From positions 18,007 to 82,006 of the forward strand of contig CAZKHX010000001.1 in NCBI GenBank assembly GCA_964552755.1: a DNA stretch of 64,000 bases, in the 5' to 3' direction. The translations under genes were made by a program, and so were the position numbers. Positions 12,320 to 45,889 of the stretch are shown here, piece by piece (within the stretch, counting starts at the first letter, position 1; each line of letters starts with the position of its first letter). The notes under the pieces are model-generated. The model was not told the DNA's origin. It saw nothing but the letters and a program-made list of their open reading frames with translations, and did not search any database. Origin of the DNA: Candidatus Micrarchaeota archaeon (GTDB lineage Archaea; Micrarchaeota; Micrarchaeia; Anstonellales; Bilamarchaeaceae).

Positions 12320-12456
12320 AATACTATTGTGGCTGGAAGTGTTTATAAATGTATTTTTTTGGCAGAAGGTGGTTGTTCGCGCACACCCGTGTTCCCGCCC
12401 GGAAATGGGCAAAAAACCGCAACCTTTATATTACACATCCTTCCCTAAATAACCAT

Positions 12457-15193: not shown

Positions 15194-17911
15194 CTAAAGT
15201 CGCTCCCCGTATTCGGTGATGAAGCGCTCGTACTCCGCAAGCAGCCCCGCAGTAATCGAGGGCCGCATGCGCGAGATTATGTCAACAACTTTTTCAGTGG
15301 TCAGCTTCGGCTCCTTGCCCGTTGAGCTCTCCCTGAGCAGGTACATGCGCGCCTGCTGGGCGACCGCAGCGATGTCCGCCCCGGAGAATCCCTCGGAAAC
15401 CTTCGCGAGCTTCTTCAGGTCCAGCCCCGTGGCGAATTCGCCGAGGTGGATGTTGAAGAGCTGCTCGCGCCCGGTGGAGTCCGGCGCGTGCACATAAATT
15501 ATCTTGTCAAAGCGGCCGGGCCTCAGGATTGCGGGGTCGAGCATCTCCGGCTTGTTCGTTGCGCCCACAATCATCACGCCCTCCATTCCCTTTATGCCGT
15601 CCATCTCCACAAGGAACTGGCCGGTGATTTCAGCGCGCCCGATATCCCTAGAAGGCGCAACCGTTTCAATCTCATCTATGAAGATCACGGAAGGCGGGTT
15701 CTCCCGCGCCCGGTTGAAGGTTTCCTTGATTACGTTCACCGCATGGGTGTAGCCGCGTTTCATCAATTGCGCACCGCCCAGCGAAAGGAACGTGATGTCC
15801 AGCTCGTTGGAAGCTGCGCGGACAACAAGCGTCTTGCCGCACCCGGGCGGGCCGAACATCAAAATCCCCTTGGTGGGCTTCACCCCGTACCTCTTCACCA
15901 GCTCGGGGTGCAGCAGCGGCGTCTCAATCGCCTCGCGGAAAGAGCGCTTCACGTCCTCCAAATCCGCAACATCGTTCCAGCCGATTTTCTTCTCCGCCTC
16001 TTTCTCTTTGGGCGCCTTCTCCGCTTCGCGCTCCGCAACCCCTGCGACCGAGCGCTCGAAATCGGTCCTGAACTCATCGTAATCCTCAATCTGCGCAAAA
16101 GTGGTGCTGGGCTTGGTGTGCTCAAGCACAGCGCGCAGCAGATCCATGGTGACCGGCACTACCTTTCCGGTCTTCTTTGCCTGGCCTGCAGCGAGCCCCA
16201 CCGCCTCCTTCACTACGTTTGCGATGTCCGCGCCGGAGTAGCGGTCGCTCTCAGCCGCCAGCTTCCTGTAATCGACCTTTTTCCCGAGTATGCCCTTCTT
16301 TGCGAGCCCTTCCATGTGCACCTTGAATATCGCCTCCCGCGCCTCCTTGTCCGGAAGGTGCATGTACACTATCTTGTCAAAGCGGCCGGGCCTCATGAGC
16401 GCCGGGTCCAGCTTGTTCGGCACATTGGTTGCGCCAACCACGATCACCGGCTTCTTGTTGTCGGTTTTCAGGCCGTCCATTTCCTGGAGGAGGATGCTTA
16501 GCACGCGCGGCCCCACGTCATCTGAAGAGGCTGCCATGCGCTTCTTCCCCAGCGCATCGATTTCATCGAAGAAAAGTATCGCCGGCGCGCTTTCCCGCGC
16601 CTTTGCGAATATCTCGCTTATGTTCTTCTCGCTCTCGCCCACCCATTTGGAGAGGATATCCGAGCTTTTCACATAGTACATGCGGAAGTCCAGCTCCTTT
16701 GAAAGGGCGCGCATGAGCATCGTCTTCCCGGTGCCGGGAGGCCCGAAGAGCAGTATCCCCGAAGGCGGCTTAATCCCGTATGCGCTCGCAAGCTCAACGT
16801 TCTGCAGGGGCAGCACTATGGAGCTGCGCAGCTCATCCTTCACGTCATCGTAGCCGCCCACATCGTCAAGCCCCTCCTCGCCCCCTCCGATGGACATGTC
16901 CTGCAGCCCAAACTTCCCGAATGATTTCATTTTCTCCTTCGCGCTTATCTTGCGCTCGCGGGATACGTGCGCCCCGAGAAAGTCGGCCGCGCCGACCACC
17001 GCAACCGCAAGCAGGAAATAGGGGAACATCATCCAGCTGAATGCGAAGCCCACAAAGGAAAGAAGGAAATATGCAAGGGGCACCAGCAGTATCGCAAGCG
17101 CGGATTTCGTCTGGTTCCACCTCCCCTTCCTGAATACGCGGGGGAGCATCCCCACAACGTAGAGCGCCGCACCCCACACCATCAACTGCACAATGCCGCC
17201 GTCCATGAACAGCAGCGTGACCGAATTGGAGAATATCTTCCCGAGCACCGCCCACACATGGGTTGCGGAGGCGAAGTTGAGTATTGAGCCCAGCGCAGCC
17301 CCGATTTCGGAGCCGAGGGCGCCCAGCTCAACCGGCCCGGCCCTGAGCGCAAGCTGGCCCACCGCGGGCTCATATGCGGAAAGCGTGACCGGCAGGAATG
17401 CGTTGTTCGGCACCAGCCAGAGCGAAGAGAGCAGCAGTATGATGAACACCGCGGGCACGGAAATCAGCACGCTCTTGCGCGAGCCGAAATGGAAGCTGCC
17501 CAGCAGCATGAGCAGGTAAACCATCCCGCCGAGCATTGCAAAGGGTGCGGCGGCAAAGGGCAGGAGGCAGATTACTTCCAGCAGCGCGATTATCCCCCAG
17601 TTGTCGAACATCTCGAAGAAGACAATTGCGAGAAGGAGGAGCCCCAGCCAGCCCCATACGGTGGACTGGAACGCGAATGCGGGGATTGCGAGTATCCATG
17701 TCGCGCCCACCCCGAGGGGCGGCTTCTTCATTGCGATTGCGCCGCAGATGAGCGCGAGGACGAATGCAACCGCAATGGGGTAGAATGGGATTGCGGTGAG
17801 GAGCGCAAGCGCCCCAAGGAATACGAGTATTGCATTCCAGAAGGATTCGCTCTCCTGGAGCTGCTGCGTGTAGGCCACTATCCTTTGCTGAGTGAGCGTC
17901 GCCCCGGCCAT
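15194..17911 (-). CDS. Membrane-anchored tandem AAA+ ATPase (Cdc48/VCP-like D1+D2 with ~330-aa polytopic N-terminal domain)
   Basis: Two Walker A motifs ('GILLFGPPGTGKTML', 'GILMFGPPGCGKTLV'), each followed by Walker B 'DEID/DEIE' and SRH regions. The N-terminal third has ~8-9 predicted TM helices. Confidence 0.85.
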   Translation of the reverse strand: MAGATLTQQRIVAYTQQLQESESFWNAILVFLGALALLTAIPFYPIAVAFVLALICGAIAMKKPPLGVGATWILAIPAFAFQSTVWGWLGLLLLAIVFFEMFDNWGIIALLEVICLLPFAAAPFAMLGGMVYLLMLLGSFHFGSRKSVLISVPAVFIILLLSSLWLVPNNAFLPVTLSAYEPAVGQLALRAGPVELGALGSEIGAALGSILNFASATHVWAVLGKIFSNSVTLLFMDGGIVQLMVWGAALYVVGMLPRVFRKGRWNQTKSALAILLVPLAYFLLSFVGFAFSWMMFPYFLLAVAVVGAADFLGAHVSRERKISAKEKMKSFGKFGLQDMSIGGGEEGLDDVGGYDDVKDELRSSIVLPLQNVELASAYGIKPPSGILLFGPPGTGKTMLMRALSKELDFRMYYVKSSDILSKWVGESEKNISEIFAKARESAPAILFFDEIDALGKKRMAASSDDVGPRVLSILLQEMDGLKTDNKKPVIVVGATNVPNKLDPALMRPGRFDKIVYMHLPDKEAREAIFKVHMEGLAKKGILGKKVDYRKLAAESDRYSGADIANVVKEAVGLAAGQAKKTGKVVPVTMDLLRAVLEHTKPSTTFAQIEDYDEFRTDFERSVAGVAEREAEKAPKEKEAEKKIGWNDVADLEDVKRSFREAIETPLLHPELVKRYGVKPTKGILMFGPPGCGKTLVVRAASNELDITFLSLGGAQLMKRGYTHAVNVIKETFNRARENPPSVIFIDEIETVAPSRDIGRAEITGQFLVEMDGIKGMEGVMIVGATNKPEMLDPAILRPGRFDKIIYVHAPDSTGREQLFNIHLGEFATGLDLKKLAKVSEGFSGADIAAVAQQARMYLLRESSTGKEPKLTTEKVVDIISRMRPSITAGLLAEYERFITEYGERL

Positions 17912-17948
17912 GCTAGAGTAAAAGGTGGAAACTTTTTATACGTGCGCC

Positions 17949-18518
17949 TCAGATGCGCTTGAAGGCGGCGACACCCGCGGCCGTCTTGCGGAACCTGTAG
18001 CCCATCTTCATGAGCACCTTCTCGGTCTTTGTGCCCCTCTGCACAACTATGTCCGCCAGCTGCCCGTCGGGGTTTGTGGGCGAGGTAATGGTCACTGCGA
18101 ACTCGAATTCCGCCTCCTTCCCGCGCTTCTCCCTGCGGTCAACGAGCAGCTCGCGCAGGCCCTTCCCCTCATAGGGAAGCAGCACCGCATCATCCTCAAG
18201 GAAAACCGCGTTCTCCTCCCCCTCGACTATCCCCCCCGAGTCCTCATCAAAGTGCACCCCCCATGCGAGGCCCACTGCAACCAGCATCCTGCCGACAAAT
18301 GCGCCGTAGCTCATGCCGAGCCCAAGCACGTCCCCCACTTCTTTTTCGGTAACGGAGAAGAGACACTTCCGCATGATGCGCGAAACCTCTTCCGTATCAG
18401 AGGGCTCAAGGCGCTTGATTTCCGCCTCCTCGAATTCCAAGGGCGCATGGAACTTCTTCTTTTTCTCTTCCTTTTCCTCCTCTTTCTCGTCCACTACGGG
18501 CCCCTTGAACTCAGACAT
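17949..18518 (-). CDS. Hypothetical protein (acidic, K/E-rich N-terminus)
   Basis: ORF in operon context between the Zn-ribbon gene and the AAA gene. No domain recognised. Confidence 0.45.
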   Translation of the reverse strand: MSEFKGPVVDEKEEEKEEKKKKFHAPLEFEEAEIKRLEPSDTEEVSRIMRKCLFSVTEKEVGDVLGLGMSYGAFVGRMLVAVGLAWGVHFDEDSGGIVEGEENAVFLEDDAVLLPYEGKGLRELLVDRREKRGKEAEFEFAVTITSPTNPDGQLADIVVQRGTKTEKVLMKMGYRFRKTAAGVAAFKRI

Positions 18519-18857
18519 TCACACAAACCTCGTCCTGCATACCGGGCAGCGCGTCATGTACCCGCCCATCTCGTAGCCGCATATCGGGCAGCGCCACACC
18601 GTTTTCTTTGCGCGCTCCATCTCCGCCTTGAAGCTGAAGCCGCACTTTTCGCACACATTCGCGTCAAGGTCGTTGAGCTCCTTGCACTTTGGGCACTTCT
18701 TTTTGAACATGGATTTTATGCGGACCCCGCAGCTCGGGCAGCGCTCCATGTCCAGCGTGACCTGCGCCCCGCAGCTCGGGCACTTGAACTTCTTCCCGGC
18801 GAGGGTTGATTTGCCCTTGCCGCCCACCGCGCCCTTCAGCACGTCTAGTATGCCCAT
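18519..18857 (-). CDS. Triple zinc-ribbon protein
   Basis: Three CxxC...CxxC pairs: 'CPSCGAQ..CPSCGV', 'CPKCKEL..CEKCGF', 'CPICGYE..CPVCRT'. It abuts the upstream gene. Confidence 0.6.
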   Translation of the reverse strand: MGILDVLKGAVGGKGKSTLAGKKFKCPSCGAQVTLDMERCPSCGVRIKSMFKKKCPKCKELNDLDANVCEKCGFSFKAEMERAKKTVWRCPICGYEMGGYMTRCPVCRTRFV

Positions 18858-19870
18858 CTTGCCACCAGCGGCGCAAGCAGTATCAGAAGCGAAACGCAGC
18901 AGACCTTCTTCTCTTCGGGCACTGGCCTGTTGAACGGGTCGAAGCCTTCATCCCCGCCGCCCCCTTCAAGGGAGCCGCTGCCCGGGCTACCCGTTTCCTT
19001 CTCCACGGCGGGCAGCTCCTCCGGGAGCTCCCCCCCGCACTCATTCTCCATCGCGGCGTTCACCACCGAGAGGTCCAAATCGTAATCGCCCGCCTCCAGG
19101 TCGGATTCGAGCGAGGCGATTGCCGCGTCAACCGTGGAGCTGGAGCAGGACCTGTCGCTCTTCACCTTGAGCACGCCGTCAATTTTTTTCACCGCGGCCT
19201 CGCATGCGGCCTTGCCCTCCGAATATTCGCGCGCATCCTCGAGCGCGGGGCCGAGCAGGCTGGCCGCGCTGCTCACCTTGCACTGGCTCAAGAATGTGCG
19301 GGCGCTGCCCGCCTTGCCCGAAAGGCTTTCCACATCAAAGGGGCAGCATGCTCCGCTCGTGGTGCAGTAGTCCCCGCCCTCGAGCCCGGAGTAGAGCGCC
19401 TCCAGCTCGTCCGCATCCTCGATTGCCTGCGATTCGGAAGATGAGGGGTAATGGGTGAGGTTGTCCAGCTCTATAATATAGTAATAGTCGTCCCCGAGCT
19501 CGAACTTGAGCACTTCCACCCCGTCGAGGGTTTCCTCGGGCTCGCCCCCGAACTGGAAGGGCATCTCAAGGTCCTCGTTGTCCCCACACACGCTCCCGTA
19601 GGAGGAAATGCTGCACTCTCCGATTTCCACCCATCCCCCTGTTTCCCGGTCCATGTAGTAGAAGGTTGCGGTTTCGGATTCGCCGTACGGGTTGATTATC
19701 CATATTTCGAAGCTCACTATGGAGGGGCCGCTCGAGCCGCAGTTGGGTATCCTGTAGCCCGGGTGCACGCCCCTTACCTCTACGTCTGAATCGTCCATCT
19801 CGGTTGCGGCAAAAGCAAAGCCGGAAAGCATCAGGAAGCCTGCCAGCAGCAGGAACAGCGGCCTTTTCAT
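18845..19870 (-). CDS. Secreted Cys/acidic-rich protein with N-terminal signal peptide and C-terminal hydrophobic anchor
   Basis: 'MKRPLFLLLAGFLMLSGFAFA' is a signal peptide. The C-terminus 'KKVCCVSLLILLAPLVARWAY' is hydrophobic. First gene of the minus-strand operon. Confidence 0.6.
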   Translation of the reverse strand: MKRPLFLLLAGFLMLSGFAFAATEMDDSDVEVRGVHPGYRIPNCGSSGPSIVSFEIWIINPYGESETATFYYMDRETGGWVEIGECSISSYGSVCGDNEDLEMPFQFGGEPEETLDGVEVLKFELGDDYYYIIELDNLTHYPSSSESQAIEDADELEALYSGLEGGDYCTTSGACCPFDVESLSGKAGSARTFLSQCKVSSAASLLGPALEDAREYSEGKAACEAAVKKIDGVLKVKSDRSCSSSTVDAAIASLESDLEAGDYDLDLSVVNAAMENECGGELPEELPAVEKETGSPGSGSLEGGGGDEGFDPFNRPVPEEKKVCCVSLLILLAPLVARWAY

Positions 19871-19922
19871 GCGTCAGGATTAACCGGCAACCCTTTTTAT
19901 CTTTTTCCTCGAAAGTGGCGCA
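19870..19922. promoter_or_regulatory. Short divergent intergenic region with AT-rich TATA-like element between the two operons of the membrane-system block
   Basis: 'CCTTTTTATCTTTTT' lies ~30 nt upstream of ATG 19922. The same element read on the other strand precedes the minus-strand operon start (19870). Confidence 0.4.
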
Positions 19923-21187
19923 TGCGAAAGGCGCTTCTGCTACTGGCAGTGATTGCCCTGTGCCATGCAGGCGGCGCCTCCCCCAAAGTAGACCTCCCTG
20001 AGCTCGGGTTCGTATTCGTTGGCGCGGCAGTGCTCCTTTCCACGGCATTCATCGCGATAGCGTACATGGTCTCCAGCGCGTTCCAGAACCCGCAGGCGAT
20101 TGCATGGTCGAAGAACCAGCTGCGGGAACTGATTGTCGGGGTGTTCATAGTGGTACTGGTTGTCGGCGCGTACGTGGCGGCGAACGAGCTCATCTCCAGC
20201 ATGACCGGCTACCCCAACGCGGTGGAGCTGGGGGAGGACAACATCCGCGATATACTCGCCCCGATAGAAAAGATATACAAGAAGGTGGGCGAGGCCTATT
20301 TCACGCTCGGCCAGTACCAGGGCTCTTCCACCTCATACGTCTCTGGCAACCTCGGCTACATATACTATCATGAGTCCAAGAGCCCGTATTACGGGGTGAG
20401 CCCGGTGATGGGCAGCCTCAACCAGCAGACCTACCAGCTCACGATGCAGATACTCTCCTTCCGCTTCCTGCTTGTGCTTCTCCAGTACATAGACGTAGTG
20501 GTGCCGAATTTCCTCCTTCCGCTGGGCATGGCCTTCCGCGTGTTCCCGTTCACGAAAAAGATAGGGAACACGCTGATTGCGCTCGCTCTCGGCGCGCTCT
20601 TCATGCTGCCCGCGTCCCTGCTTGTGGTGGACGAGATGCGGAAGGCAATCACGTTCCAGCATGTGGACGCGGCCGCGCTCATGAGCTTCCAGGTGAGCAG
20701 CGCCATGGGCGAGATGACCGGCAGCGCCACAGGAGATGCGCTCTACAGCCTCCTCATATGGCCCTACCTGGTCGCAAAGGAAACCTGCGAAATAGCGACA
20801 GTCCGCACGTTCTTCTCTTTGGGGGAAATAGTGTGGGGCGTCATATATGCGACGCTTGCCGCGATAAAGTGCCTCGCCGGCTATGCGGCCTGCTGGGTGA
20901 TTGAGTTCAACTTCTTCGTGTTCTTCCTGTGGCCGTGGATAATGTTCTTTGCGCAGAACATACTCGCGGTGCTTGTCGCGATAGCCGGCACCCCGTCAGC
21001 GGGGTTCATCTACGACCTGCTGGTCGCGGACATAGTAAAATACCTATTCCCAGCGGTGAGCGAGCTCACCACCTTCTCCATAATGTCAATAATAGTGATA
21101 GCGGTAATCACGTTCACAGGAACGCGCTCGATATCTGTCGCCCTGGGAGGCGAGTACGCCCTTTCAGGGCTTTCGAGGCTGATATGA
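19922..21187 (+). CDS. Polytopic membrane protein, paralog M1 of a 6-member tandem family
   Basis: Signal-like N-terminus, multiple TM helices, core motif 'LLPLGMAFRVFPFTKKIGNTLIALALGALFMLP', C-terminus '...LSGLSRLI'. Stop overlaps the next start (ATGATGA). Confidence 0.75.
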   Translation: MRKALLLLAVIALCHAGGASPKVDLPELGFVFVGAAVLLSTAFIAIAYMVSSAFQNPQAIAWSKNQLRELIVGVFIVVLVVGAYVAANELISSMTGYPNAVELGEDNIRDILAPIEKIYKKVGEAYFTLGQYQGSSTSYVSGNLGYIYYHESKSPYYGVSPVMGSLNQQTYQLTMQILSFRFLLVLLQYIDVVVPNFLLPLGMAFRVFPFTKKIGNTLIALALGALFMLPASLLVVDEMRKAITFQHVDAAALMSFQVSSAMGEMTGSATGDALYSLLIWPYLVAKETCEIATVRTFFSLGEIVWGVIYATLAAIKCLAGYAACWVIEFNFFVFFLWPWIMFFAQNILAVLVAIAGTPSAGFIYDLLVADIVKYLFPAVSELTTFSIMSIIVIAVITFTGTRSISVALGGEYALSGLSRLI

Positions 21188-22074
21188 TGAGGGCCGCGCT
21201 CTTCCTCCTGCTGCTTGCGCCGCTGTGCTCCGCGGCAACCTGCGACTTCGCGAGCGACGTGTTCGCGGATGCAATCCCGATAATCGCCGCTGCGATACTT
21301 TTCTCAGTGGCGCTTGCCGCAATAATGTACATGGCAGGCAGCGTGCTGCACGACCCCGGCCTGCACGTGGGCAGCAAGGACCTGCTGTTCCAGGCATTCG
21401 TCTCCATACTGCTAGTGCTCTTCATACAGGGGCTGTTCACCGGGCTGTGCCTCATGACGGCAGATTTCCTGGGAGGGCAGGATGCCCTCTCCACCGCAAT
21501 CTACGATCTGAGGCAGCTCAAGATTGAGGGTGCGCAGATACTCACCAACCTGATGAAGAAGGTGGTGAACGAGAAGTTCACCGCGGCGTATTTCTCCGGC
21601 TACTACATCCCGCTGAGCGGGGGCGAGACGTTTTTCCCCTACGGGGAGCACAACGCATATGCGCGCCATGCGGAAATCGTCTTCGACATGGCGATGATCG
21701 GCTACGTGAGCGTGGGCATACAGAGCATGATACTGAAAGGGATACGGGACCTCACGCTCGCGATACTGCTCCCGTTCGGGCTGATACTGCGCTCCCTCCC
21801 CAAGCTCAGGGAGGGCGGCAACATCCTCATCGCGCTCGCTCTCGCATTATATGTGGTATTGCCGTTTGCGTATGCTGTGAATTCCACCGCTGCGGACATC
21901 ATCCCTGATTTCTGCGACGGCGATGACGGGGTGTTCGGCGCATGCGGGGATGGGTACGGGTTCGGCACGGTCGGGCTCTACCTGTTCCGTACGGTATTCC
22001 TACCGAACCTCGCGCTGGTGATTTTCGCAACTTCCGCAGGCGCGCTGGTGAAAGTCGCGAAGGTGATTCCATGA
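21184..22074 (+). CDS. Polytopic membrane protein, paralog M2
   Basis: 'MMRAALFLLLLAPLCSA' N-terminus; core motif 'LLPFGLILRSLPKLREGGNILIALALALYVVLP'. ATGA overlap with M3. Confidence 0.7.
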   Translation: MMRAALFLLLLAPLCSAATCDFASDVFADAIPIIAAAILFSVALAAIMYMAGSVLHDPGLHVGSKDLLFQAFVSILLVLFIQGLFTGLCLMTADFLGGQDALSTAIYDLRQLKIEGAQILTNLMKKVVNEKFTAAYFSGYYIPLSGGETFFPYGEHNAYARHAEIVFDMAMIGYVSVGIQSMILKGIRDLTLAILLPFGLILRSLPKLREGGNILIALALALYVVLPFAYAVNSTAADIIPDFCDGDDGVFGACGDGYGFGTVGLYLFRTVFLPNLALVIFATSAGALVKVAKVIP

Positions 22075-25932: not shown

Positions 25933-25940
25933 GTGATGAG

Positions 25941-26954
25941 ATGACTGCAGGCGTTGATGAGATGCTCGGGACGGTTTTCCTCAGCCAGTGGGTTGCGCAA
26001 ATGGGCTGGTTCACCAATGCGGTGCTCGCGGTCATCGTCACCGCCTTCATATTCGGGATAATCTACGTGATTGCGTACGCAATCAACTCCTTCCCGCTGA
26101 GGAGGTACGCGACATCGGAGTTCCTGCAGCTCGCGGCTACCGCGCTGATGGTAATCGGGCTGGTGGCCTTCATCCAATTGGGCTCTGCCGCGGTTTCCAC
26201 CTCCCTCGAGGGACTGGGCGTGCCATGCATGGGCGAAACATATGTTGAGCCGATAAGCGCCGCGATGTGCAAGACGGAAGAGCGGCTGATATTCTTCGAT
26301 GAGGCATGGAGCTTCCTGCGCGAGGACGTGCGCGGGGCGGAATGGTTCTACTACTTCACGATTTCCTATTACGGCGTGCCGCTGTTCCAGGGGCTTTGGG
26401 TGGCGTCAATCCACAGGCAGGTGGAGACCGCGCACTACCTTGCGTACAAGATAGTGTCCATACAGCTTTCCCTCAATGCGCAGATGTTCCTGCTGAAATA
26501 CATACGGGAAAACATGCTCACCATCTTCCTGCCGCTGGGGATAATACTGCGCACGTTCTATTTCACGCGCGGCATAGGCGGGTTCTTCATAGCGCTGGCG
26601 CTGTCCCTGTATTTCATATACCCCACAGCGCTGTTCATCATGACCGCGGTTTCCATCGGGCCGCCGGCCGTGCCGGTCCCCTCGCTTACCACAGTGGGCA
26701 TCTGCGACCTTCCAATGTACTCCGGAATGGCGTTCGGCTCCGCGAACCTTGCGACCATGGCCGGCACGGGCGGGAGCACGATGGCCTCCGCAAGCGTGAA
26801 CACAATCGCATCCTTTGTGAATACGGTATTCGTGAGGATGTTCTATGAGAACATGGTCGCGTTTGCGATTGCGCTTACCGCGCTCCGCTACGCAGGGGTG
26901 CTGCTTGGCACCGAGACAGGGGTGTTCCTGCACATGGTTTCGAGGTGGATATGA
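25941..26954 (+). CDS. Polytopic membrane protein, paralog M6
   Basis: Core 'FLPLGIILRTFYFTRGIGGFFIALALSLYFIYP'; C-terminus '...HMVSRWI'. ATGA overlap with the next gene. Confidence 0.7.
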   Translation: MTAGVDEMLGTVFLSQWVAQMGWFTNAVLAVIVTAFIFGIIYVIAYAINSFPLRRYATSEFLQLAATALMVIGLVAFIQLGSAAVSTSLEGLGVPCMGETYVEPISAAMCKTEERLIFFDEAWSFLREDVRGAEWFYYFTISYYGVPLFQGLWVASIHRQVETAHYLAYKIVSIQLSLNAQMFLLKYIRENMLTIFLPLGIILRTFYFTRGIGGFFIALALSLYFIYPTALFIMTAVSIGPPAVPVPSLTTVGICDLPMYSGMAFGSANLATMAGTGGSTMASASVNTIASFVNTVFVRMFYENMVAFAIALTALRYAGVLLGTETGVFLHMVSRWI

Positions 26955-29900
26955 TGAAAAAGCTTCTTGCGCTGCCCGCAATCGCCTTCCTTTTCCTTCT
27001 GGGGTGCAACGCGCCCACTTACCAGGATTGCTGCCTTTACGCGAACGCAAGCGATAGCGGCATCTGCGTGATGCTGAACGGCACAATCTACGATGACAGC
27101 ACCTGCGACATGGAACTGCTCACCTGCAACGTGACGCTGGACGACAGGGAGCTGGAGATCCCCCTCTGCCCGAAAGTGGACAAGGTTAGATGCAACACCT
27201 CCTGCGTGGGCGTGTTCTGCGGCAGCTTCGACTACGACCCGAGGCCGCTGCCCAGCCCCGCGGATGACATGCAGAGCGACGATGAGGAATCGCAGGAGCG
27301 GGTGACTGCAGGCTCCGCTTCCGAGCGCGGGCCGATAAACCTTTTCCAGTCCGAGTGCAGGGTGAAGAACATCACCCCCGCGTTCCTGCGCGCCGCGAAG
27401 AGCACGGGCGGGTTCACGCTCAACGTGTTTCGCTTCGGGGTCGGGAACTCCTTCGCGGAATTCGACGAGGCGATGGCATACTTCCCGCTCACCGACCTCT
27501 CCTGCAGGATAAACATGTACGGGACGAAGGACCGCTACGTGAACTACGTGCTGCCGAACAGCATAGACGGCTCGGAAAAGCTGTGCAGGTTCACCGGCAT
27601 CCTTGACGCGATGTATATCTGCAATATTGATTCCACAATCGAGTCGCACAGCTATTACGACTGCGCGAGCAGATGCGCGCTCGCATACCAGGGCTACGAG
27701 CCCAATGTGGACCCGGACAACCCCTACCCTACGGAGAACGAGGCCGGGGAGCTCGTGGGCAACCCGTTCTCGTACGGGATTTACGGCACCTATTCGCTTG
27801 CTCCGGCCGAGCCGCTTGTGCTGAGCAGCAAGTACCGCGACCAGGTTGACATGTCCGGCATCACGTTCACTTCCACCTCGCCATTCAAGGACGAGTACCA
27901 GCCGGGCTACAACTTCTACGGCGCGACCTTCAGGAAATCCGATTCGCTCAGCGCGGAGAGGGGGGGAATAGACTGGGCAGTCGCAAGATACGGCCTGCCC
28001 ATTTTCTTCACCGATTCCATATACGACTATTACTCCGGGGAGATGGAGGACACGGACTCCATGGAGTTCTCCGGCTCCACCACCGTTTTCACCACCGCGG
28101 AGCAGGACCTGCACGGCGCGTACATCCCGCTGCTCACCCACCACTCGGTTTATGCGGACCAGCTTGCCGAGGGCCACAGGCTAGACAACGGCTCATGGAT
28201 GCCGGGCGCGGAGTTCGAGTGTGCGGACAATTCCGAATGCATCTCCGGCTTCTGCAACACTTTCGACTACCACCGGGGCAACTGCATCCCCAAGGACAAG
28301 TGGATTCTGGGCGAATATATCTCCAACTATGAAGTGCCGTGCGGCTGCTGGGAATACCAGGGCGAGACGCTCTGCCCAGGGATGCAGAGCTATGAGGCGC
28401 AGGCATGGGACGACACAAGCGAAAGGGTGCGCGCGACCGCAGCGCTTTCCGCCCCCGTGCGTGCGCACAAAGAGCTGGAGGTGCTCACCCCGCTGCGGAG
28501 CATGCCCTCCAAGGGCCGCGTGTTTTCCCATGAGGATGATGAGACCGGGGAAACCATCCCCTACGTAGTGATACAGGTCGGCGGGGAAAGCAGGCACCCT
28601 ACTTACGGGTACACTAATTTCGGAGCCCTGGACATGGCAGGCGTGTTCGATGATGAATCGTACAGGGCCGCGATGGCAGCATGGCTCATGGCCGTCGATG
28701 CAAGAACCCTTACCATCGACCAGGCGCTTTCCCGTGACAAGTGGGGCCAGTGCGGCACGGACTGCGGCAAGTTCTACACGACCTTTGCGGAGGCATGCAT
28801 GCCCGAATGGGATTCCGACCCGGATGCGTATGACTATTTCCACATGTGCAGGGAGTTCCCCGAGGTTTCCGGCGGCTCTGCACCCCCCGCCGCAGTCTAC
28901 GGGAAAAAAGTGTCCCCTTCCACCGGGGAAGCGGTGGATTCCGGCTTCTGCGCCTCCCTCAACGGGAACAGCGAGCTGTACGATGAGGTCTTCTGCTATG
29001 AGCGCAACATAGACGATGACTGCGTAGCATGGTCCACTACCGCGATAGTTGTAGAGCCGCGCCCGGTTACTTACCGCGATGAGGAGGGCAGGGAAATTGC
29101 AGGCTATGCTTTCGGCAACTGCCTTGCGGACGAGGACGGCACGGAGCTGCTCACGCACACCTACGGGATTTGCGAGCAGTGCACCTTCCTCACGCTCGCG
29201 AAGCAGGAAATCGTTCCCCTCCCGCAGGACGAGGACGACCCGGGCTACCCAGGGAGCGGCGACAGGGAGGACAACAAGTACTGCCCGAACGTGGTGGTGG
29301 AGACGCCCTACGAGCCGAACGACCCTGCAGTAACGAAATTCGGGAGCCTCGGCCCTTATGACGAGTGGCAGGTTGGCGGCACTCACGGCACCGAGGACTA
29401 TTCTCAGTGCTACATGCCGGACTATTCCGAGAACGGCCTGCAGGAAGCCTGGGCCGACTACCTGCCCAACGCATACTACCTTAAGAGGAAAACCGAGAGC
29501 TACCTAGTGCGGGGCGTGATGCCCGTAATCGTCGCGACCAACGACAGCCTCTGGGAGGCATACACGAGCCCCGGGGGCGAGAGAGACTGGGCGCTGATGG
29601 CGTATTATTGGAACCACATCACGAGGGATGACGAAGGATATGCGCGGGTAACTATAGACGCGAGCCACCCCTACATGATTGAGCTTGCGGAGAACGAGCC
29701 GCAGCTGCTGGAGCAGTTCGCGCAGCATGACGAGGCCGGGGAATACTATGCCTTCGGAGGCCCGCTGCTCCTGAACGGCATACAGGACATGGGCGCCGCG
29801 ATAATCATCGTCGGGAACCAGGACCTTGGCGACTGGAGCAGCATACCCCTGTTCGGCGCTTACAGTGCCGGGGGCGGGGCAAGCAACAGGGACAGGGCCA

Positions 29901-31108
29901 GGGCGGTCCGCCTCATCTGCCCCAACTGCATGGTCGCAGTGGGCGCGGGTTATACCGGATACGGGGGGGATGCCGAGAACAGCTACCAGCGCCGGCTCGA
30001 TTTCGCGAACTTCCTTTTCCGCTACCAGAACGAATCAACGCATTACATACTCAACGGGCCGGACAGCTACAACCTGACCATCCCGTGCGAAGACCCGCGG
30101 CTTGAATGCGACAACGAGGCCCTGAACCTGGTGGACGTGCTTGCGATGAAATGGGAGCTCAGCAAGGAGGATTCCTTCTGCGAAATAGAAAATGAGCAGG
30201 AGCGCTTCCAGGCAATCCTTGACGCGGAAACCGGCCTCGGCTCGCGCATGCTTGCGCGCTTCCACAAGCCGGTCGTGATTACGGACTTCAGCATAGTGCT
30301 CACCGAGTTCGATACCTGCTGGGACGCGGAGAGCGCCGCACGCTTCATGGTATTCCTTTCGGAGCACACGCAGGAGCTTGCGGAGAGCGGCCACCTAGGC
30401 ATAATCTATGATGCATGGACGAAGGAGCGGGCGGAGGCCGCGCCCACGGGCACCGCCACCGCTGCGGAGCAGGGCCGCGCCTACATCCGCGTGGACTCGG
30501 GCGACGTGGACGGCAGGAGGGGCACGTTCTATGAGGGCGCCTTCATCGCCTCGCGCATCTTTGCGGGCTACGAGCACAAGACCTATTTCAACGAGGTGAG
30601 CGCAACCGAGGAATGCTACTGCGAGCCCTGCCTGCCCTCCGACCCGGATGAGATTTGCAACGGCCGCTACCGCGGGGTTGGCTATGAGTGCAAGGACTAT
30701 GACGGCTCGCGCAGCAAATGGTCTGAAATGTGCGTCTCGCTCAACCAGTGCACCCTCCCCGGCGAGGATGATTATGAGATTGAATGCGACGTGATATACA
30801 ACAACGGCACCCGCACCACGGAAACCTACCATTCTGATGACATTGCGGAAACCCCTCAGCTCTACATGGACGTGATTGCCTCAATCGAGGAGGGCTACGG
30901 CACGCCCTGCTTCAACTTCAGCGGCAATTACATAAGCTATGTGAAGATTGGCGAGCCGATTTTCCAGGCAACGCCCACGATGTTCAGGACCGATGGCGAC
31001 ACCGCCAAGTCCTGCACCCCGCTGGAGGGCTTCGACCTTTCCTTCTGCGGCTACACGCCGCCCGTGAGCGACAGGGAGATGCACTGTGAAATACTAGGGG
31101 TGAGGTGA
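26951..31108 (+). CDS. Giant (1387-aa) secreted cysteine-rich lipoprotein
   Basis: 'MMKKLLALPAIAFLFLLGC' is a signal peptide plus lipobox. The protein is very Cys/Asp/Tyr/Asn/Gly-rich throughout and has no TM after the signal. It is translationally coupled to M6. Confidence 0.75.
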   Translation: MMKKLLALPAIAFLFLLGCNAPTYQDCCLYANASDSGICVMLNGTIYDDSTCDMELLTCNVTLDDRELEIPLCPKVDKVRCNTSCVGVFCGSFDYDPRPLPSPADDMQSDDEESQERVTAGSASERGPINLFQSECRVKNITPAFLRAAKSTGGFTLNVFRFGVGNSFAEFDEAMAYFPLTDLSCRINMYGTKDRYVNYVLPNSIDGSEKLCRFTGILDAMYICNIDSTIESHSYYDCASRCALAYQGYEPNVDPDNPYPTENEAGELVGNPFSYGIYGTYSLAPAEPLVLSSKYRDQVDMSGITFTSTSPFKDEYQPGYNFYGATFRKSDSLSAERGGIDWAVARYGLPIFFTDSIYDYYSGEMEDTDSMEFSGSTTVFTTAEQDLHGAYIPLLTHHSVYADQLAEGHRLDNGSWMPGAEFECADNSECISGFCNTFDYHRGNCIPKDKWILGEYISNYEVPCGCWEYQGETLCPGMQSYEAQAWDDTSERVRATAALSAPVRAHKELEVLTPLRSMPSKGRVFSHEDDETGETIPYVVIQVGGESRHPTYGYTNFGALDMAGVFDDESYRAAMAAWLMAVDARTLTIDQALSRDKWGQCGTDCGKFYTTFAEACMPEWDSDPDAYDYFHMCREFPEVSGGSAPPAAVYGKKVSPSTGEAVDSGFCASLNGNSELYDEVFCYERNIDDDCVAWSTTAIVVEPRPVTYRDEEGREIAGYAFGNCLADEDGTELLTHTYGICEQCTFLTLAKQEIVPLPQDEDDPGYPGSGDREDNKYCPNVVVETPYEPNDPAVTKFGSLGPYDEWQVGGTHGTEDYSQCYMPDYSENGLQEAWADYLPNAYYLKRKTESYLVRGVMPVIVATNDSLWEAYTSPGGERDWALMAYYWNHITRDDEGYARVTIDASHPYMIELAENEPQLLEQFAQHDEAGEYYAFGGPLLLNGIQDMGAAIIIVGNQDLGDWSSIPLFGAYSAGGGASNRDRARAVRLICPNCMVAVGAGYTGYGGDAENSYQRRLDFANFLFRYQNESTHYILNGPDSYNLTIPCEDPRLECDNEALNLVDVLAMKWELSKEDSFCEIENEQERFQAILDAETGLGSRMLARFHKPVVITDFSIVLTEFDTCWDAESAARFMVFLSEHTQELAESGHLGIIYDAWTKERAEAAPTGTATAAEQGRAYIRVDSGDVDGRRGTFYEGAFIASRIFAGYEHKTYFNEVSATEECYCEPCLPSDPDEICNGRYRGVGYECKDYDGSRSKWSEMCVSLNQCTLPGEDDYEIECDVIYNNGTRTTETYHSDDIAETPQLYMDVIASIEEGYGTPCFNFSGNYISYVKIGEPIFQATPTMFRTDGDTAKSCTPLEGFDLSFCGYTPPVSDREMHCEILGVR

Positions 31109-31118
31109 GGGTGATTTA

Positions 31119-34100
31119 ATGTTTTGTCCCGAAATAAAGGCGATGAGGCCCGCCGCATTCCTTGCGCTCCTGATTCTCGTTTCCCTAGCCTTTTCCACGA
31201 CCGGCCGGCTGCCCATGCAGATCGACCAGCCGCCGCTTATACCCGGGATGGGCGTCCCGCCCATGCACGTCCCTCCCCCTTGCGAGGAATGCCCTGCAGA
31301 GGGTTCCCTGCAGCCGTTCATGTTCTCCTCCCTAAATGAGGAGGCGGAGATTACCACTGTTACGATGGGGGTGCAGGCTGCGGACGAGCGCTACCCCGTG
31401 GAGGGCGCCACAATTTTTGCATATGTTTACGACCGTGACGGGTTCGAAACTGACAAGTGCAGGATGTACACCGATTCATCCGGCACCGCGGAATTCGACT
31501 TCAGCGGCATCCCGGAATGCACCGGAGGGGACGGGTGTACGATGCGCTTCATCTTCTGCTGCCCGAACCCCGGGCAGGGGTGCCTCATCGCAAGCTGCCT
31601 TGACGAGCCGATTACCGATTATACTGATTTCCCAATGTGCGCAGATTACAGCGGCGGGATATGGCCCGAGGCCGCAACGGTAGACGGTTCAGAGGAGCCG
31701 CTTTTCCCTGCGTATACCGAAACGGTGAGGCCGCCCGAAGAGGTGGTGATTGGCACCGCATTCGAGTTCGACCTCTGCTTCCCGGTGCTTGTCATTTTCG
31801 GCTTCCTTGCGGCCGCGATGTTTGCCGCGGGCAGGAATCCCTTCTCTGCATTTTCCATCTACACCCCGCGCTACACGCGGGGCGCGGAGCGCGCAATCAG
31901 TGCCCGCGGGTTTTCAATTGACGCGGCAAGCGTCGCGAGCGCGCTCGGCCTCGCCATGGCAGGGGGCAAGGCGCTCAAGAAGGCCGCGAAAAAGGCCGCG
32001 GCAAAGGCCAAGAAAGCGGGAGTGAGCGCCAAAAAGGTGCAGATGGCGGTGAAAGGCGCACAGACCCCTTCCAAGAAGCTGGGAGTGCAAGAAGGAGAAG
32101 AGGCAAAAGGGGGCGCGCAGGCCCAAAAGGCCGAATTGACCGGGGCGGGGGGGCCGACGCAGGCGGAAATAGCGATGGGCGCGGCCGCAGGAAAAGCGAT
32201 GCCCGGAGGCACCGCGATGGCCTTCGGAAAGTCCTTCTTCAAGGCAATATTCTCAATATTCAAGGGCGGCGATGCCGCAAGGGCAGCATGGGCGGAATTC
32301 GGGCAGCTGATGTCTGCCGGCAAGTTCAGGGGAGACATGGCGGCCCAATACCAGGGAGCAGGGGTAAGGGAGGCAGGGCTCGCATTCCTGGATACCCTCC
32401 TGCTGTTCGCAACCCCCTTCGGCCTTTACTATGCATTCGGGCAGCTGGGCCCGGTCAAGAAGCAGCTTGCCAAATACCAGGGCCAGAGGAACGCTCTTGT
32501 CGCGGCAGGCCTCATAAACCAGTTCAAGGAAGGCACCGCCTACATAAAGGAGAAGGACGGCATAGTCACGGTGCAGTTCGACAACGTCGCCACCGGGGAA
32601 ACAGTAAAGGAAACGTTTGACATAACCACAGAAAAGGGCATGAAGGCCTACCAGCACTTCCTCAACATCAACATAGTGATGCCTATCCAGATAGGCACCT
32701 CATTCATCCAGAGCCAGATGCAGGAAGGCCAGCAGGAAATGGCAAAGCAGGGGAACGGGGCGCTTACAGGGGATTCCGGGGACCTGCTCACCCAGTTCTA
32801 CCTTGTCGAGCAGGGCATGAACGTTGCGGAGCTCCAGAAATACTCCGACGCAAAGGCAGTCGACGCGGTGCTCACAGACCGCAAGGCCACTTCCGAGCAG
32901 AAGCTCTTCGCATTCCTTGCCTACATGTCCTCGGACAAGGCGAACCTTGCGAAGGCATCAAAGGAATACACGAGCTTCAACAGCTTCCTGCTCGGCTACG
33001 GGGGGGCCGCGGACCTAGTGGGCGAAGACGGCAAATTCAACGTTTCCGCCCTTACCGGAGCAATGCTGCTCTCGGGCCAGCTGGAAGGGGTATCCGAGAA
33101 GAAAGTCAGCGGCATAGCCGCGTTCAAGGCGAACCTTGAGGGGACCGTTGACCGGACAACCGGAGCGGCGCAAAACGAGGCAATAGAATCCCAGCTGCTG
33201 GCAATGGAAGCGCAGATGCTGCTTGAGGGAAAGGGCGAAAGGGAAATCGCGGTTGCGAAAAACAGGCAGGAGGCATACCTGCGCGGGAAGGGCATGGGGA
33301 TTTCCTCCGTCCTCGCGACCGAAGGCATGGGCGAGGACAGCAAGGCCGTCCAATTGGGCATACTCTCCCTGGGCTTTGCGAACATGGCCTATTCCGAGCA
33401 GCTTGGGAACAAGTCAATTGCGGAAACCGGCACCGGCAAGCTGAACAAATACTCTGCGGAGTATGCCGCGTGGAAGAAGCTCGAGATAGACGTAAGCGAG
33501 AGGAAGGGGGAGAAGCTGGAGCAGTTTGCGGATTCCTATAAGGATTATCAGGCATTCCTCGGGTATTCGCAGGAGATTGCGCTCGCGCTCCCGGAAATGC
33601 CCCCCGCGCTGCAGTACAAGCCGGAGGGCTCGCCCTCTGCCATGGCAATCGGCGTGGTTTCTGGGCAGGCGAAGCTGGAGAGCGTCCCGAAGGTGAGCGT
33701 CGGGGACGTTGCGGTTGCAGGCACCTACCAGATAGTGGGCAACCAGCAGGAAGCCGCGACGTATCTCAAAAACCTTGGGCAGATAGGCAATGCGTTCGAA
33801 ACGATGGGAATGCTCCTGCAGCCGATGGCAGTGGCCAACAACATAAACGCAATGAGTGTAGGCGGGGACCCGGAAACCGGCAAGGAAGGCAAGCCAGTTT
33901 ACGAACTGCTCGTTTCGGGAGAGCCGAAAGGCAAGAAGAAGGGAGAACTGTACGACTCGGCCATCTATGTAATGATGAGCACGCTGGAAACCTCATTCGG
34001 CGAGCCGCTTTCCACGCGGGGGGCGGAGGAGTATAAACAATTCGACTACATAAACTCCGGCGCGAAAAAGGCAGGGGAAAAGCCGCCGGAATATAAGGGC

Positions 34101-35156
34101 GCGGAGCTGCAGAAGCAGCTGGATGCGCAGGCAGCCATAATACTTGACCCTGCCGCAGACCCGGATGCAAAAGCCAAGGCGCTTGAGCAGTTTGGGTACC
34201 TTGCGCTGGGCACAATCCAGAGCTCCGGCAGCGCCAAGAAGGACAGGGGCATTGCGCTGGATGCAATTGCAGAGCTCGGCGTGACCAAGGCAACAAACCA
34301 ATATACGGACGCAACCCTTGGCCCAGAATACCTCCCCACATTCGAGACGACGACTGCCGAAACCGCCGCGGCGGAGCAGATACAAATAACAAAGGTGCAA
34401 TACCAGGCCCCCCAGCCCGAATATTCGAAGCCGGAAACCTCAGGGATGCTTACGACTTACCTCACCATGGGAAATACTTTCGCTGGCACTGAATCAATCC
34501 CCGGGGGGAGGGACCTGAAGAAAGAGATTGACTCCCAGACAAAGGTAGCGACTGACCCGAATTCCTCCCCGGACCAGGTAGCCGAATCGTTGCTTGTGCT
34601 TGGGCCGCTGACGCTTGGCGTTCTGCAGAACCCTGAAAGCAGCGCACAGGACAAGGCGCTGGCAAGGGCGGCCCTCACAGGCCTTGCGGACAAGGTGCCT
34701 GCTGACAACCTGCTGCCTCCCGAAGAAACGGTTGCCGAAACCACAGCAGGGGAACAGTTCAAAATCACGAAAAAAGGTTATGGCGCTCCGCCCCCCGCAT
34801 ATGCTCCCCCGGAGCCGGGCGCGAAGCCTCCCCTGGCCGGGGTGGAAGGCCTCGACCCGATGCAGAATTTCCAGAACATATACAACCTGCCGTCAGCGCA
34901 GAAGGCAATTGGCAAATACATGGAAGACCCAAAGATCCATGATGAAGCATTCAAGATGGAAAAAACCGCGAAGGAAACCTACGAAAGCATACCTGTGGGC
35001 GGCTACATAAGCAAGGAAGAGAAAGAGACCGTGCCCTTCCTTGAAGAACGCCCGTTGCCAAGGGCTACTGAGAGGTTTGAAGCGCCGCACGAAGCGACCG
35101 GCCCAAAAACAAGGGAGGAAAAGGCCGCAGGGCATTCCAAAGGCGGTAAGAAATGA
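31119..35156 (+). CDS. Giant (1345-aa) membrane protein: signal peptide, Cys-rich ~200-aa ectodomain, TM helix, then ~1100-aa K/A/E/Q-rich helical low-complexity domain with internal repeats
   Basis: Strong SD 'GGTGAGGTGAGGGTGAT' lies before ATG 31119. TM 'FEFDLCFPVLVIFGFLAAAMFAAG' at ~aa 215-238; 'KKAAKKAAAKAKKAG' tracts; ~130-aa internal repeat ('TAETAAAEQIQITKVQYQAPQPE' / 'TVAETTAGEQFKITKKGYGAPPPAY'). Confidence 0.75.
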   Translation: MFCPEIKAMRPAAFLALLILVSLAFSTTGRLPMQIDQPPLIPGMGVPPMHVPPPCEECPAEGSLQPFMFSSLNEEAEITTVTMGVQAADERYPVEGATIFAYVYDRDGFETDKCRMYTDSSGTAEFDFSGIPECTGGDGCTMRFIFCCPNPGQGCLIASCLDEPITDYTDFPMCADYSGGIWPEAATVDGSEEPLFPAYTETVRPPEEVVIGTAFEFDLCFPVLVIFGFLAAAMFAAGRNPFSAFSIYTPRYTRGAERAISARGFSIDAASVASALGLAMAGGKALKKAAKKAAAKAKKAGVSAKKVQMAVKGAQTPSKKLGVQEGEEAKGGAQAQKAELTGAGGPTQAEIAMGAAAGKAMPGGTAMAFGKSFFKAIFSIFKGGDAARAAWAEFGQLMSAGKFRGDMAAQYQGAGVREAGLAFLDTLLLFATPFGLYYAFGQLGPVKKQLAKYQGQRNALVAAGLINQFKEGTAYIKEKDGIVTVQFDNVATGETVKETFDITTEKGMKAYQHFLNINIVMPIQIGTSFIQSQMQEGQQEMAKQGNGALTGDSGDLLTQFYLVEQGMNVAELQKYSDAKAVDAVLTDRKATSEQKLFAFLAYMSSDKANLAKASKEYTSFNSFLLGYGGAADLVGEDGKFNVSALTGAMLLSGQLEGVSEKKVSGIAAFKANLEGTVDRTTGAAQNEAIESQLLAMEAQMLLEGKGEREIAVAKNRQEAYLRGKGMGISSVLATEGMGEDSKAVQLGILSLGFANMAYSEQLGNKSIAETGTGKLNKYSAEYAAWKKLEIDVSERKGEKLEQFADSYKDYQAFLGYSQEIALALPEMPPALQYKPEGSPSAMAIGVVSGQAKLESVPKVSVGDVAVAGTYQIVGNQQEAATYLKNLGQIGNAFETMGMLLQPMAVANNINAMSVGGDPETGKEGKPVYELLVSGEPKGKKKGELYDSAIYVMMSTLETSFGEPLSTRGAEEYKQFDYINSGAKKAGEKPPEYKGAELQKQLDAQAAIILDPAADPDAKAKALEQFGYLALGTIQSSGSAKKDRGIALDAIAELGVTKATNQYTDATLGPEYLPTFETTTAETAAAEQIQITKVQYQAPQPEYSKPETSGMLTTYLTMGNTFAGTESIPGGRDLKKEIDSQTKVATDPNSSPDQVAESLLVLGPLTLGVLQNPESSAQDKALARAALTGLADKVPADNLLPPEETVAETTAGEQFKITKKGYGAPPPAYAPPEPGAKPPLAGVEGLDPMQNFQNIYNLPSAQKAIGKYMEDPKIHDEAFKMEKTAKETYESIPVGGYISKEEKETVPFLEERPLPRATERFEAPHEATGPKTREEKAAGHSKGGKK

Positions 35157-35464
35157 CCGGAACCCGGCCGATGAGGCGCCTGAGGCGCCACCTCACGGTT
35201 GAGAACCTCTGGCTATACATCCTCTCATTAATCAGGAAAAAGAAGGAAGTTTACGCATATGCGCTCCCGGAAGAGATAGAGAAGCGCTATTCCTTCAAGC
35301 CCAGCAGGGTGATGATGTACATAGTATTGCACATGCTGGAGGATGAGGGGCTTATTACAAGCAAAATGAAGGAGCGCAGGAAATATTACAGGCTTACGAA
35401 GAAAGGCAACGAAGCGCTGAAAGAATCCAGGAAAATGCTCACATCCCTTTCAAGGAAGCTCTGA
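35153..35464 (+). CDS. PadR-family winged-helix transcriptional regulator
   Basis: 'ENLWLYILSLI...YAYAL...MYIVLHMLEDEGLI...RKYYRLTKKGNEAL' is a PadR signature. ATGA overlap with the giant gene. Confidence 0.75.
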   Translation: MTGTRPMRRLRRHLTVENLWLYILSLIRKKKEVYAYALPEEIEKRYSFKPSRVMMYIVLHMLEDEGLITSKMKERRKYYRLTKKGNEALKESRKMLTSLSRKL

Positions 35465-45783: not shown

Positions 45784-45889
45784 TGGGGCTGTAGGGATTT
45801 GAACCCTAACATGCAGGTTTCTTGAGAGAACTCCGCCGAAGCGGATCTCGCCTGGAGCCTGCCGCGCTACCTGGTTACGCCACAGCCCC
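45784..45889 (-). tRNA. tRNA-Trp(CCA) with ~33-nt intron
   Basis: Acceptor GGGGCUG/CAGCCCC, D-stem GCGU/GCGC, anticodon stem GCAGG...CCUGC, loop 'CUCCAG^intron^A', T-arm UAGGG-UUCAAAU-CCCUA. The intron is a hairpin 'GGAGAUCCGC-UUCG-GCGGAGUUCUC' with no obvious box C/D. Confidence 0.75.

Follow-up and report, generated by a model that had tools for sequence, protein, structure and literature searches.

The subject of this analysis is a block of 13 genes at positions 15,194 to 35,464 of a 64,000-nucleotide stretch of DNA (the window) on contig CAZKHX010000001.1 of a Candidatus Micrarchaeota archaeon. The plus strand encodes six membrane proteins (M1 to M6, together the hexad), two giant proteins (G1 and G2), and the regulator PadR; the minus strand encodes the predicted surface protein Sec341, the zinc-ribbon protein ZnR, the soluble protein H189, and the ATPase AAA. 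An earlier note on this DNA had described nine plus-strand genes that diverge from four minus-strand genes across 51 bp, and open reading frame (ORF) listing together with inspection of the junctions confirms this layout of real, tightly packed genes. All 13 products are identical in independent public gene calls from the same organism, with lengths of 421, 296, 602, 348, 337, 337, 1384, 1345, and 103 amino acids (aa) on one strand and 341, 112, 189, and 905 aa on the other. Because the block is conserved in at least 27 other genomes, it is more than a set of chance ORFs. G1, G2, and PadR are co-oriented and tightly packed with the hexad core in this lineage, and, depending on the lineage, the hexad is associated with giant envelope proteins, PadR, and two kinds of hexameric ATPase.

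M1 to M6 are paralogs, with pairwise BLASTP E values of 1e-12 to 1e-3, 18–24% identity between M1–M5 and M6, and a common LLPLGIILRSFPFTRxxGG motif, which bears out the earlier description of six paralogous polytopic membrane proteins. Related loci (numbered with the prefix L) were collected by a motif-based scan of one genome per Genome Taxonomy Database (GTDB) species, in which absences are not informative. ORFs were called in all loci and classed with hidden Markov models built from the window proteins. Of the other loci, 27 have exactly six M genes in tandem, and in these the array position matches the predicted class in 26, 27, 24, 16, 18, and 27 of the 27 cases for positions 1 to 6, giving a near-diagonal matrix. 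Complete loci hold exactly one of each of M1 to M6 in a fixed order, so that the window and these 27 loci all carry six tandem paralogs that share an LRxFxxTRxxGG loop. Because array position predicts class, the six-fold duplication predates the divergence of the sampled Micrarchaeota lineages. Retention of one copy per paralog in a preserved order would be the signature of a non-redundant hetero-oligomer.

The M proteins appear to constitute a large new membrane-protein family, comprising about 3000 clusters at 50% identity, for which no PDB relative is detected. A HMMER search of 1.84 billion representatives recovers 2999 such clusters at E ≤ 1e-3 and 2175 at E ≤ 1e-10, and many members carry large insertions of up to ~1700 aa. 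M1 to M6 have no match in Pfam, NCBIfam, PADLOC, or PHROGs, and the M6 family has none in a PDB profile search. The earlier view that these paralogs belong to no known family therefore stands, and homology to a housekeeping transporter, which the earlier note had named as grounds for rejecting its proposal, was looked for and not found. M3 is identical to protein P0001, which is encoded on a 237-kb public contig. In the single metagenome-assembled genome CSMAG_931, there are two different hexad-G1 loci (L009 and L014) whose M6 proteins are 42% and 40% identical to that of the window; this genome either contains two hexad copies or is a mixed bin. In L021, a 292-aa ORF at 11056–11934 on the plus strand lies between M6 and G1, and its N terminus resembles a phage-type DNA-binding domain by eye, as might be expected if a small mobile element had inserted into the operon.

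Each M protein is predicted to have five transmembrane (TM) helices with its N terminus outside and its C terminus inside the cell. This topology is based on hydropathy, an AlphaFold2 (AF2) model of M6 (predicted local distance difference test score 72.7), and loop statistics over 22 orthologues, and it is supported by the finding that the short loops are basic and cysteine-free while the long loops are acidic and cysteine-bearing. The inferred order is TM1, a short basic loop, TM2, an acidic outer domain, TM3, a basic loop, TM4, a variable outer loop, TM5, and a tail. The outer domain of ~100 residues is acidic, contains conserved cysteines, and in the M6 model consists of long helices and two beta-hairpins. 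A signal-like, cleavable N terminus is predicted in M1 to M4. M1 combines a signal-peptide-like N terminus with five predicted TM helices and the tail LGGEYALSGLSRLI, and M3 contains a lipobox-like LFGC motif, a ~300-aa insert in a predicted outer loop, and 23 cysteines in the whole protein.

The most conserved features of the family, the LRxFxxTRxxGG loop and the terminal tail, are predicted to lie on the cytoplasmic face. The short basic loop between TM3 and TM4 has the sequence RSFPFTRxxGG, and the residues that are nearly invariant across 42 diverse members (G200, R204, R210, G213, and P228) fall in or beside this loop. An LGG[DE]x[DE][IL]xxLx[RK]L[IV] tail ends the proteins at positions 1, 3, 4, 5, and 6 at most 2 residues from the C terminus; position 2 never carries the LGG[DE] tail, and the M2 of the window ends in KVAKVIP. 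The codons that end the M genes also look like a ribosome-binding site serving the gene that follows. A recurrent AGG-NTG-ATA-TGA-TG junction is found at 21176–21187, 23868–23879, 24911–24922, and 26943–26954, where the last three codons (R-[LMW]-I) and the stop overlap the next ATG in a Shine-Dalgarno-like arrangement. These bases may have two functions, encoding the conserved protein tail and coupling the translation of adjacent genes. An origin of the R-L-I tail purely as a by-product of the overlapping ribosome-binding site was rejected as the sole cause. In L026 and L033, the tail is kept where the next gene lies on the other strand, and the constraint thus acts on the protein.

Table 1. 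Positions of the 13 genes and the divergent control region in the window.
Feature	Position	Strand	Description
AAA	15194..17911	-	905 aa, membrane-anchored double AAA+ ATPase, Cdc48/VAT/p97 type
H189	17949..18518	-	189 aa, conserved soluble protein, no TM segment, one Cys
ZnR	18519..18857	-	112 aa, three zinc ribbons, 12 Cys
Sec341	18845..19870	-	341 aa, predicted surface protein
Divergent control region	19871..19921	.	51 bp, intergenic
M1	19922..21187	+	421 aa, hexad position 1
M2	21184..22074	+	296 aa, hexad position 2
M3	22071..23879	+	602 aa, hexad position 3
M4	23876..24922	+	348 aa, hexad position 4
M5	24919..25932	+	337 aa, hexad position 5
M6	25941..26954	+	337 aa, hexad position 6, best-conserved paralog
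G1	26951..31108	+	predicted giant surface protein, ~1385 aa
G2	31119..35156	+	predicted giant single-pass protein, 1345 aa
PadR	35153..35464	+	103 aa, PadR-family winged-helix regulator

Consecutive plus-strand genes, described earlier as translationally coupled, either overlap by 4 nt (ATGA) or are separated by no more than 10 nt, and the start of PadR overlaps the end of G2 by 4 nt. On the minus strand, ZnR and Sec341 overlap by 13 nt, H189 abuts ZnR, and a 37-nt gap separates H189 from AAA. Since the other junctions show the AGG-NTG-ATA-TGA-TG pattern, the more likely start of G1 is the ATG at 26951 or 26954, giving 1385 or 1384 aa, and not the GTG at 26945. Of the two giant lengths given earlier, 1345 aa for G2 is retained, and 1387 aa for G1 becomes 1385 or 1384 aa.

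The divergent region contains a single AT-rich, TATA-like tract, TTTTTATCTTTTT, separated from the start codons of Sec341 and M1 by 23 and 20 nt, respectively. In relatives, TTTATATA occupies this place, with ~50-bp spacing, and a TATA-like tract lies ~20–27 nt from both divergent starts, upstream of M1, in L002, L007, L008, L010–L013, and L015. This placement suggests a shared bidirectional TATA box that would give rise to leaderless mRNAs.

AAA is a double AAA+ ATPase of the Cdc48/VAT/p97 type in which the N domain is replaced by ~340 aa of TM helices. Pfam recognizes AAA (1.6e-76) and AAA_lid_3 in two stretches each, along with Vps4_C, so that both D1 and D2 with their lids are present as in Cdc48/VAT/p97. 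Residues 344–865 match VAT (PDB 5g4g) at 1e-111 and p97/Cdc48 at ~1e-106. The N-terminal ~340 residues form hydrophobic helices, with hydrophobic segments within 43–317, in the place of the substrate- and adaptor-binding N domain of the known enzymes; Pfam finds no CDC48_N in the protein, and the PDB alignments start at residue 344. The membrane-embedded double-AAA+ ATPase of the earlier note is thereby confirmed. The membrane domain shows no similarity to the 12-TM or 6-TM proteins of the variant operons described below, and the PADLOC matches of AAA to IetA and TRIP13 were set aside as generic AAA+ similarity.

AAA adjoins H189 in the window and in seven relatives (L003, L004, L008, L010, L012, L013, and L015). 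In these relatives, AAA is inverted relative to the window and lies tail-to-tail with H189 on the opposite strand, still directly beside it, which points to a local single-gene inversion. The four-gene minus-strand operon proposed earlier therefore holds for the layout of this genome, the only one in which AAA belongs to it, and does not extend to the seven relatives. Outside the nearer clades, no linkage of H189, ZnR, or AAA to the array is seen. The association between AAA and the hexad is thus best described, from gene order, as a conserved neighborhood within one superclade and not as a conserved operon.

In ten loci (L022, L023, L034–L037, and L040–L043), which represent at least two divergent groups, the hexad operon itself encodes a different ATPase, related to HerA and VirB4. 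This variant block is co-directional and comprises 14–16 genes with the hexad in the middle. It begins with a 12-TM protein and a 6-TM protein, followed by the six M genes and two paralogous bitopic proteins of ~270 aa, and it ends with the ATPase of ~500 aa, small proteins, a coiled-coil protein, and a membrane protein of ~776 aa. The ATPase contains DUF87, AAA_10, and a TraG P-loop by Pfam, and its best PDB relatives are HerA and the VirB4-like 4ag5. The coiled-coil protein has a weak, sub-threshold CdvB_HTH-like winged helix. One of the small proteins of the variant operon is similar to the C terminus of the HerA/VirB4-like ATPase. In L040–L043, the variant operon is flanked by a MoxR-type AAA gene immediately upstream and by Topo VI-B immediately downstream.

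G1 contains a signal peptide with a conserved lipobox-like LLGC motif, 53 cysteines, and beta-rich domains. Residues ~840–1160 match, at the level of fold, a (beta/alpha)8 triosephosphate isomerase barrel like those of glycoside hydrolase (GH) clan GH-A. Pfam gives no match at E up to 0.1, no CAZy or Pfam GH-family membership is found by sequence, and a PDB profile search yields chance matches only. The invariant Asp1114 (VVTDF) lies at the place judged to be that of the strand beta-7 nucleophile, a putative assignment made from the alignment and model strands. Like clan GH-A members (GH26, GH53, GH10, GH5, and GH128), G1 has the barrel, but it sits within a lipobox-bearing protein of ~1385 aa with 53 cysteines.

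G2 contains a signal peptide, a ~190-aa ectodomain, a TM helix at 219–237, and a conserved juxtamembrane motif. Eleven cysteines precede this single TM helix and none follow it in the ~1100-aa tail, which is rich in A, G, K, Q, and E. Since cysteines are confined to the part before the TM helix, the ectodomain is probably short and the long tail cytoplasmic. The same TM and juxtamembrane motif is present in giant proteins of L024, L030, and L032, whose genes lie upstream of the hexad in divergent orientation. Self-BLAST finds no internal repeats in G2, and scans of Pfam, NCBIfam, PADLOC, and PHROGs give nothing usable for G1, G2, Sec341, or H189. The earlier statement that the giants have no assignable family is retained for G2 and qualified for G1, which matches at fold level over a single domain.

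Sec341, the secreted minus-strand protein of the earlier description, has hydrophobic segments at 5–23 and 323–341 by hydropathy, consistent with a signal peptide and a C-terminal TM anchor, and its ectodomain contains 12 cysteines. It evolves fast, with 26–29% identity in relatives. ZnR matches Zn_ribbon_3, DZR, and UPF0547 in Pfam, which substantiates the triple zinc ribbon seen earlier, and is 62–71% identical in relatives. H189 is 51–65% identical in nine relatives and has no Pfam, NCBIfam, or PDB-profile match; its assignment by eye as a GNAT acetyltransferase (YEGKGLRELL) was dropped, as no profile supports it. Grouped by predicted location, the outer proteins Sec341 and G1 are 26–39% identical to relatives, with 28–48% for G2 in local alignments, and the predicted inner proteins ZnR, H189, PadR, and AAA are 48–71% identical.

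PadR, also recognized earlier, matches Pfam PF03551 at 9.2e-14 (51.6 bits against a cut-off of 27, profile positions 1–75). It is the last gene of the operon in the near clade and lies divergently just upstream of M1 in L017 and L021. Because PadR is linked to the hexad in two different arrangements, it behaves as expected of a dedicated regulator.

The block is a vertically inherited chromosomal locus and not a mobile element, because Pelota synteny is conserved, codon usage is like that of the flanks, and mobile-element matches are lacking. The flanking genes are housekeeping genes (aminotransferase, Pelota, GMP synthase, ProRS, and SHMT), and Pelota follows PadR in seven relatives. The earlier note had called for a check of base composition: GC content and GC content at third codon positions are slightly higher in the cluster than in the flanks, and codon usage correlates with that of the flanks at r = 0.92. 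It had also treated a lack of synteny in any other genome as a reason to abandon its proposal, and synteny is conserved in many genomes. The cluster has no match in phage, plasmid, or IMG/VR collections, and there is no integrase or tRNA at either border. Among defense and phage families, PHROGs is empty and PADLOC returns only generic AAA+ and zinc-ribbon matches. All 37 related loci are labeled Micrarchaeota. Named homologues are labeled Micrarchaeota, Micrarchaeia, or "Ca. ainarchaeum", with the exception of one partial protein labeled "bacterium"; only a minority of homologues carry taxon labels.

Several other features of the window were recorded. An archaeal 23S rRNA gene lies at 5788–9376 on the minus strand and spans 3589 nt against a 2987-position model, with no 16S gene beside it. 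Within it, an ORF at 6827–7387 (minus strand) encodes a 186-aa LAGLIDADG homing endonuclease (Pfam 1.9e-24), which indicates a putative rRNA intron. A 106-nt tRNA match at 45784–45889 (minus strand) is detected by Rfam and not by ARAGORN and is probably an intron-containing archaeal tRNA. Three tandem paralogs of ~500 aa at 183–1634, 1657–3207, and 3219–4781 (plus strand) have a C-terminal mobile domain of the phosphoenolpyruvate-utilizing enzymes as their sole recognizable feature. A 701-aa Peptidase_C25 (gingipain-type) protein, a possible surface protease, is encoded at 10307–12412 (minus strand), at a distance of ~3 kb from the cluster. A Mur-ligase family protein with middle and C-terminal domains is encoded in this archaeal genome at 49130–50365 on the minus strand.

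Micrarchaeota are reduced episymbionts (PMC5498576, PMC8975820, PMC11329633). The reading favored here, tentatively and with somewhat less than even confidence, is that the block encodes a new phylum-specific envelope machine for host contact and exchange. Because one copy of each paralog is strictly retained, M1 to M6 would assemble 1:1:1:1:1:1 into a hetero-hexamer, a pseudo-six-fold membrane platform or pore. Their cytoplasmic loops and tails would be docking sites for ring-shaped hexameric motors or scaffolds, namely the membrane-anchored Cdc48-like unfoldase and the cytoplasmic tail of G2 in this lineage and the HerA/VirB4-like ATPase of the hexad operon in other Micrarchaeota. Outside the cell, lipid-anchored G1 and Sec341 would bind or cut surface glycans, and PadR would autoregulate the operon from the shared TATA in the 51-bp region. 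The machine would mediate contact with a partner cell and the transfer of material from or to it, a role proposed because Micrarchaeota are host-dependent, the module is restricted to them, and evolution is fastest in its exposed parts. A more specific version, in which the hexad is a hetero-hexameric pore with swappable motors that together with G1 and G2 forms the base of a host conduit for lipids, metabolites, or DNA, is possible but doubtful.

Several points weigh against a machine for host contact and exchange. The assembly and stoichiometry of M1 to M6, the docking of ATPases, and the transported substrate are all inferred, every functional link is drawn from gene neighborhood, and what ties the ATPases to the hexad is adjacency. 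In relatives, the Cdc48-like gene is not co-transcribed, and in more distant clades it does not lie near the hexad; several other genomes carry the hexad by itself among housekeeping genes such as those for LeuRS and LysRS. The proposal of a membrane machine served by an ATPase gains indirect support from the HerA/VirB4-like ATPase in the hexad operon of other Micrarchaeota. The AF2 models are of moderate confidence (72.7 for M6, and 63.7). Glycan cutting by the G1 barrel is unproven: the canonical GH-A Glu/Glu pair is not recognized, and no invariant Glu follows candidate strand 4. Finally, a self-directed envelope role explains phylum-wide conservation equally well.

That role, in which the module would anchor or remodel the cell's own S-layer or glycans or act in cell shaping or division, is the main rival and, if unlikely, a serious one. 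It accords with a phylum-wide, vertically inherited locus among housekeeping genes, with a glycosidase-like barrel in G1 that could act on the cell's own glycans, and with hints of division in the CdvB_HTH-like winged helix of the variant operon and the Vps4_C-type C terminus of AAA; these hints, however, are weak, sub-threshold domain matches. A general envelope function is made less likely by the restriction of the module to a single symbiotic phylum, and the exposed parts, which evolve fast and carry large, variable, cysteine-rich inserts, look more like interaction surfaces. Giant envelope proteins encoded beside ring ATPases are also found in other DPANN symbionts, the Nanohaloarchaeota, where the SPEARE-type surface proteins carry VirB4/TraG-like domains and are proposed to act in host interaction (PMC10266531). 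G1 and G2 differ from these in lacking Ig-like repeats and an ATPase domain by Pfam and in belonging to a different phylum, and the hexad is absent from the SPEARE-type description (PMC10266531).

The nanohaloarchaeal VirB4/TraG-like domains can also be counted in favor of a highly diverged type IV secretion system (T4SS), conjugation, or Ced-like apparatus (CedA, CedA1, CedA2, and CedB) for DNA or protein transfer, with the M proteins as a VirB6- or CedA-like channel. Such systems resemble the hexad in their tandem polytopic membrane components, and ten loci place an ATPase of the FtsK/HerA/VirB4 superfamily in the hexad operon together with two small bitopic proteins and a 6-TM protein. That ATPase fits HerA about as well as VirB4, however, and the ATPase beside the window cluster is of the Cdc48 type, unlike those of T4SS or Ced. 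No VirB4-family ATPase (CagE_TrbE_VirB or AAA_10) is found in the 13 cluster proteins or the large window ORFs scanned, and tblastn with the HerA-like ATPase of distant loci finds nothing in the 64-kb window. Pfam detects no VirB6/TrbL or pilin family in the cluster proteins, and no TraG/VirD4 coupling protein or relaxase domain occurs in these or the other window proteins scanned. T4SS and Ced have no counterpart to six fixed-order paralogs or to the giants, and the hexad occupies a chromosomal core site, not a mobile one, with no plasmid, phage, or IMG/VR match. This origin is improbable. The comparison that the earlier note drew with VirB6 arrays finds no T4SS or conjugation hallmark in the window and stays an analogy only; of its secretion or host-interaction machine, the coherent, conserved module is upheld, with an ATPase in the operon elsewhere, and secretion itself is not supported.

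An ordinary solute transporter or permease diverged beyond recognition is very improbable. Polytopic membrane proteins in an operon and the need of reduced symbionts for uptake would suit it, but Pfam and NCBIfam recognize no transporter (ABC, MFS, etc.), permease, or nucleotide-binding domain, there is no nucleotide-binding or substrate-binding partner gene, and six fixed-order, non-redundant paralogs with giant envelope proteins match no known transporter architecture. An integrated virus, plasmid, or defense island, for which the slightly raised GC content and the large genes of unknown function might speak, is effectively refuted by the conserved Pelota and housekeeping synteny, the flank-like codon usage, the borders free of integrase and tRNA, and the empty phage, plasmid, IMG/VR, and PHROGs results beside generic PADLOC matches. 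A further comparison is with mycobacterial Mce lipid transport, in which six tandem MCE paralogs form a hetero-hexamer. The hexad likewise consists of six non-redundant tandem paralogs with extended helices outside the membrane, and both are relevant to organisms that must import lipids. The likeness suggests one copy each in a putative pseudo-six-fold assembly for the hexad. The M proteins differ in having five TM helices instead of a single anchor, Pfam finds no MCE/MlaD domain, YrbE permease, or MceG ATPase, and no more than two short beta-hairpins are present in the M6 model.

The way in which DPANN archaea bind their hosts and obtain material from them has yet to be explained. Contact structures and nanotubes are seen by cryo-tomography, and the literature searched names no responsible genes for those of Micrarchaeota; nor was a description of the cluster found in the literature on Micrarchaeota and DPANN cell biology, within incomplete journal coverage. 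As a candidate for host contact and exchange, the module is testable: it is phylum-wide and phylum-restricted, rich in envelope proteins, linked to ring ATPases, and equipped with a putative dedicated regulator. Even if its role is self-directed, it would define a large new membrane-protein family with six ancient paralogs in fixed order and a rare membrane-embedded ATPase of the Cdc48 type. If the reading of the hexad as a pore at the base of a conduit is true, the module would represent a new class of archaeal cell-to-cell translocation machinery and would give the connection between DPANN archaea and their hosts a molecular identity.

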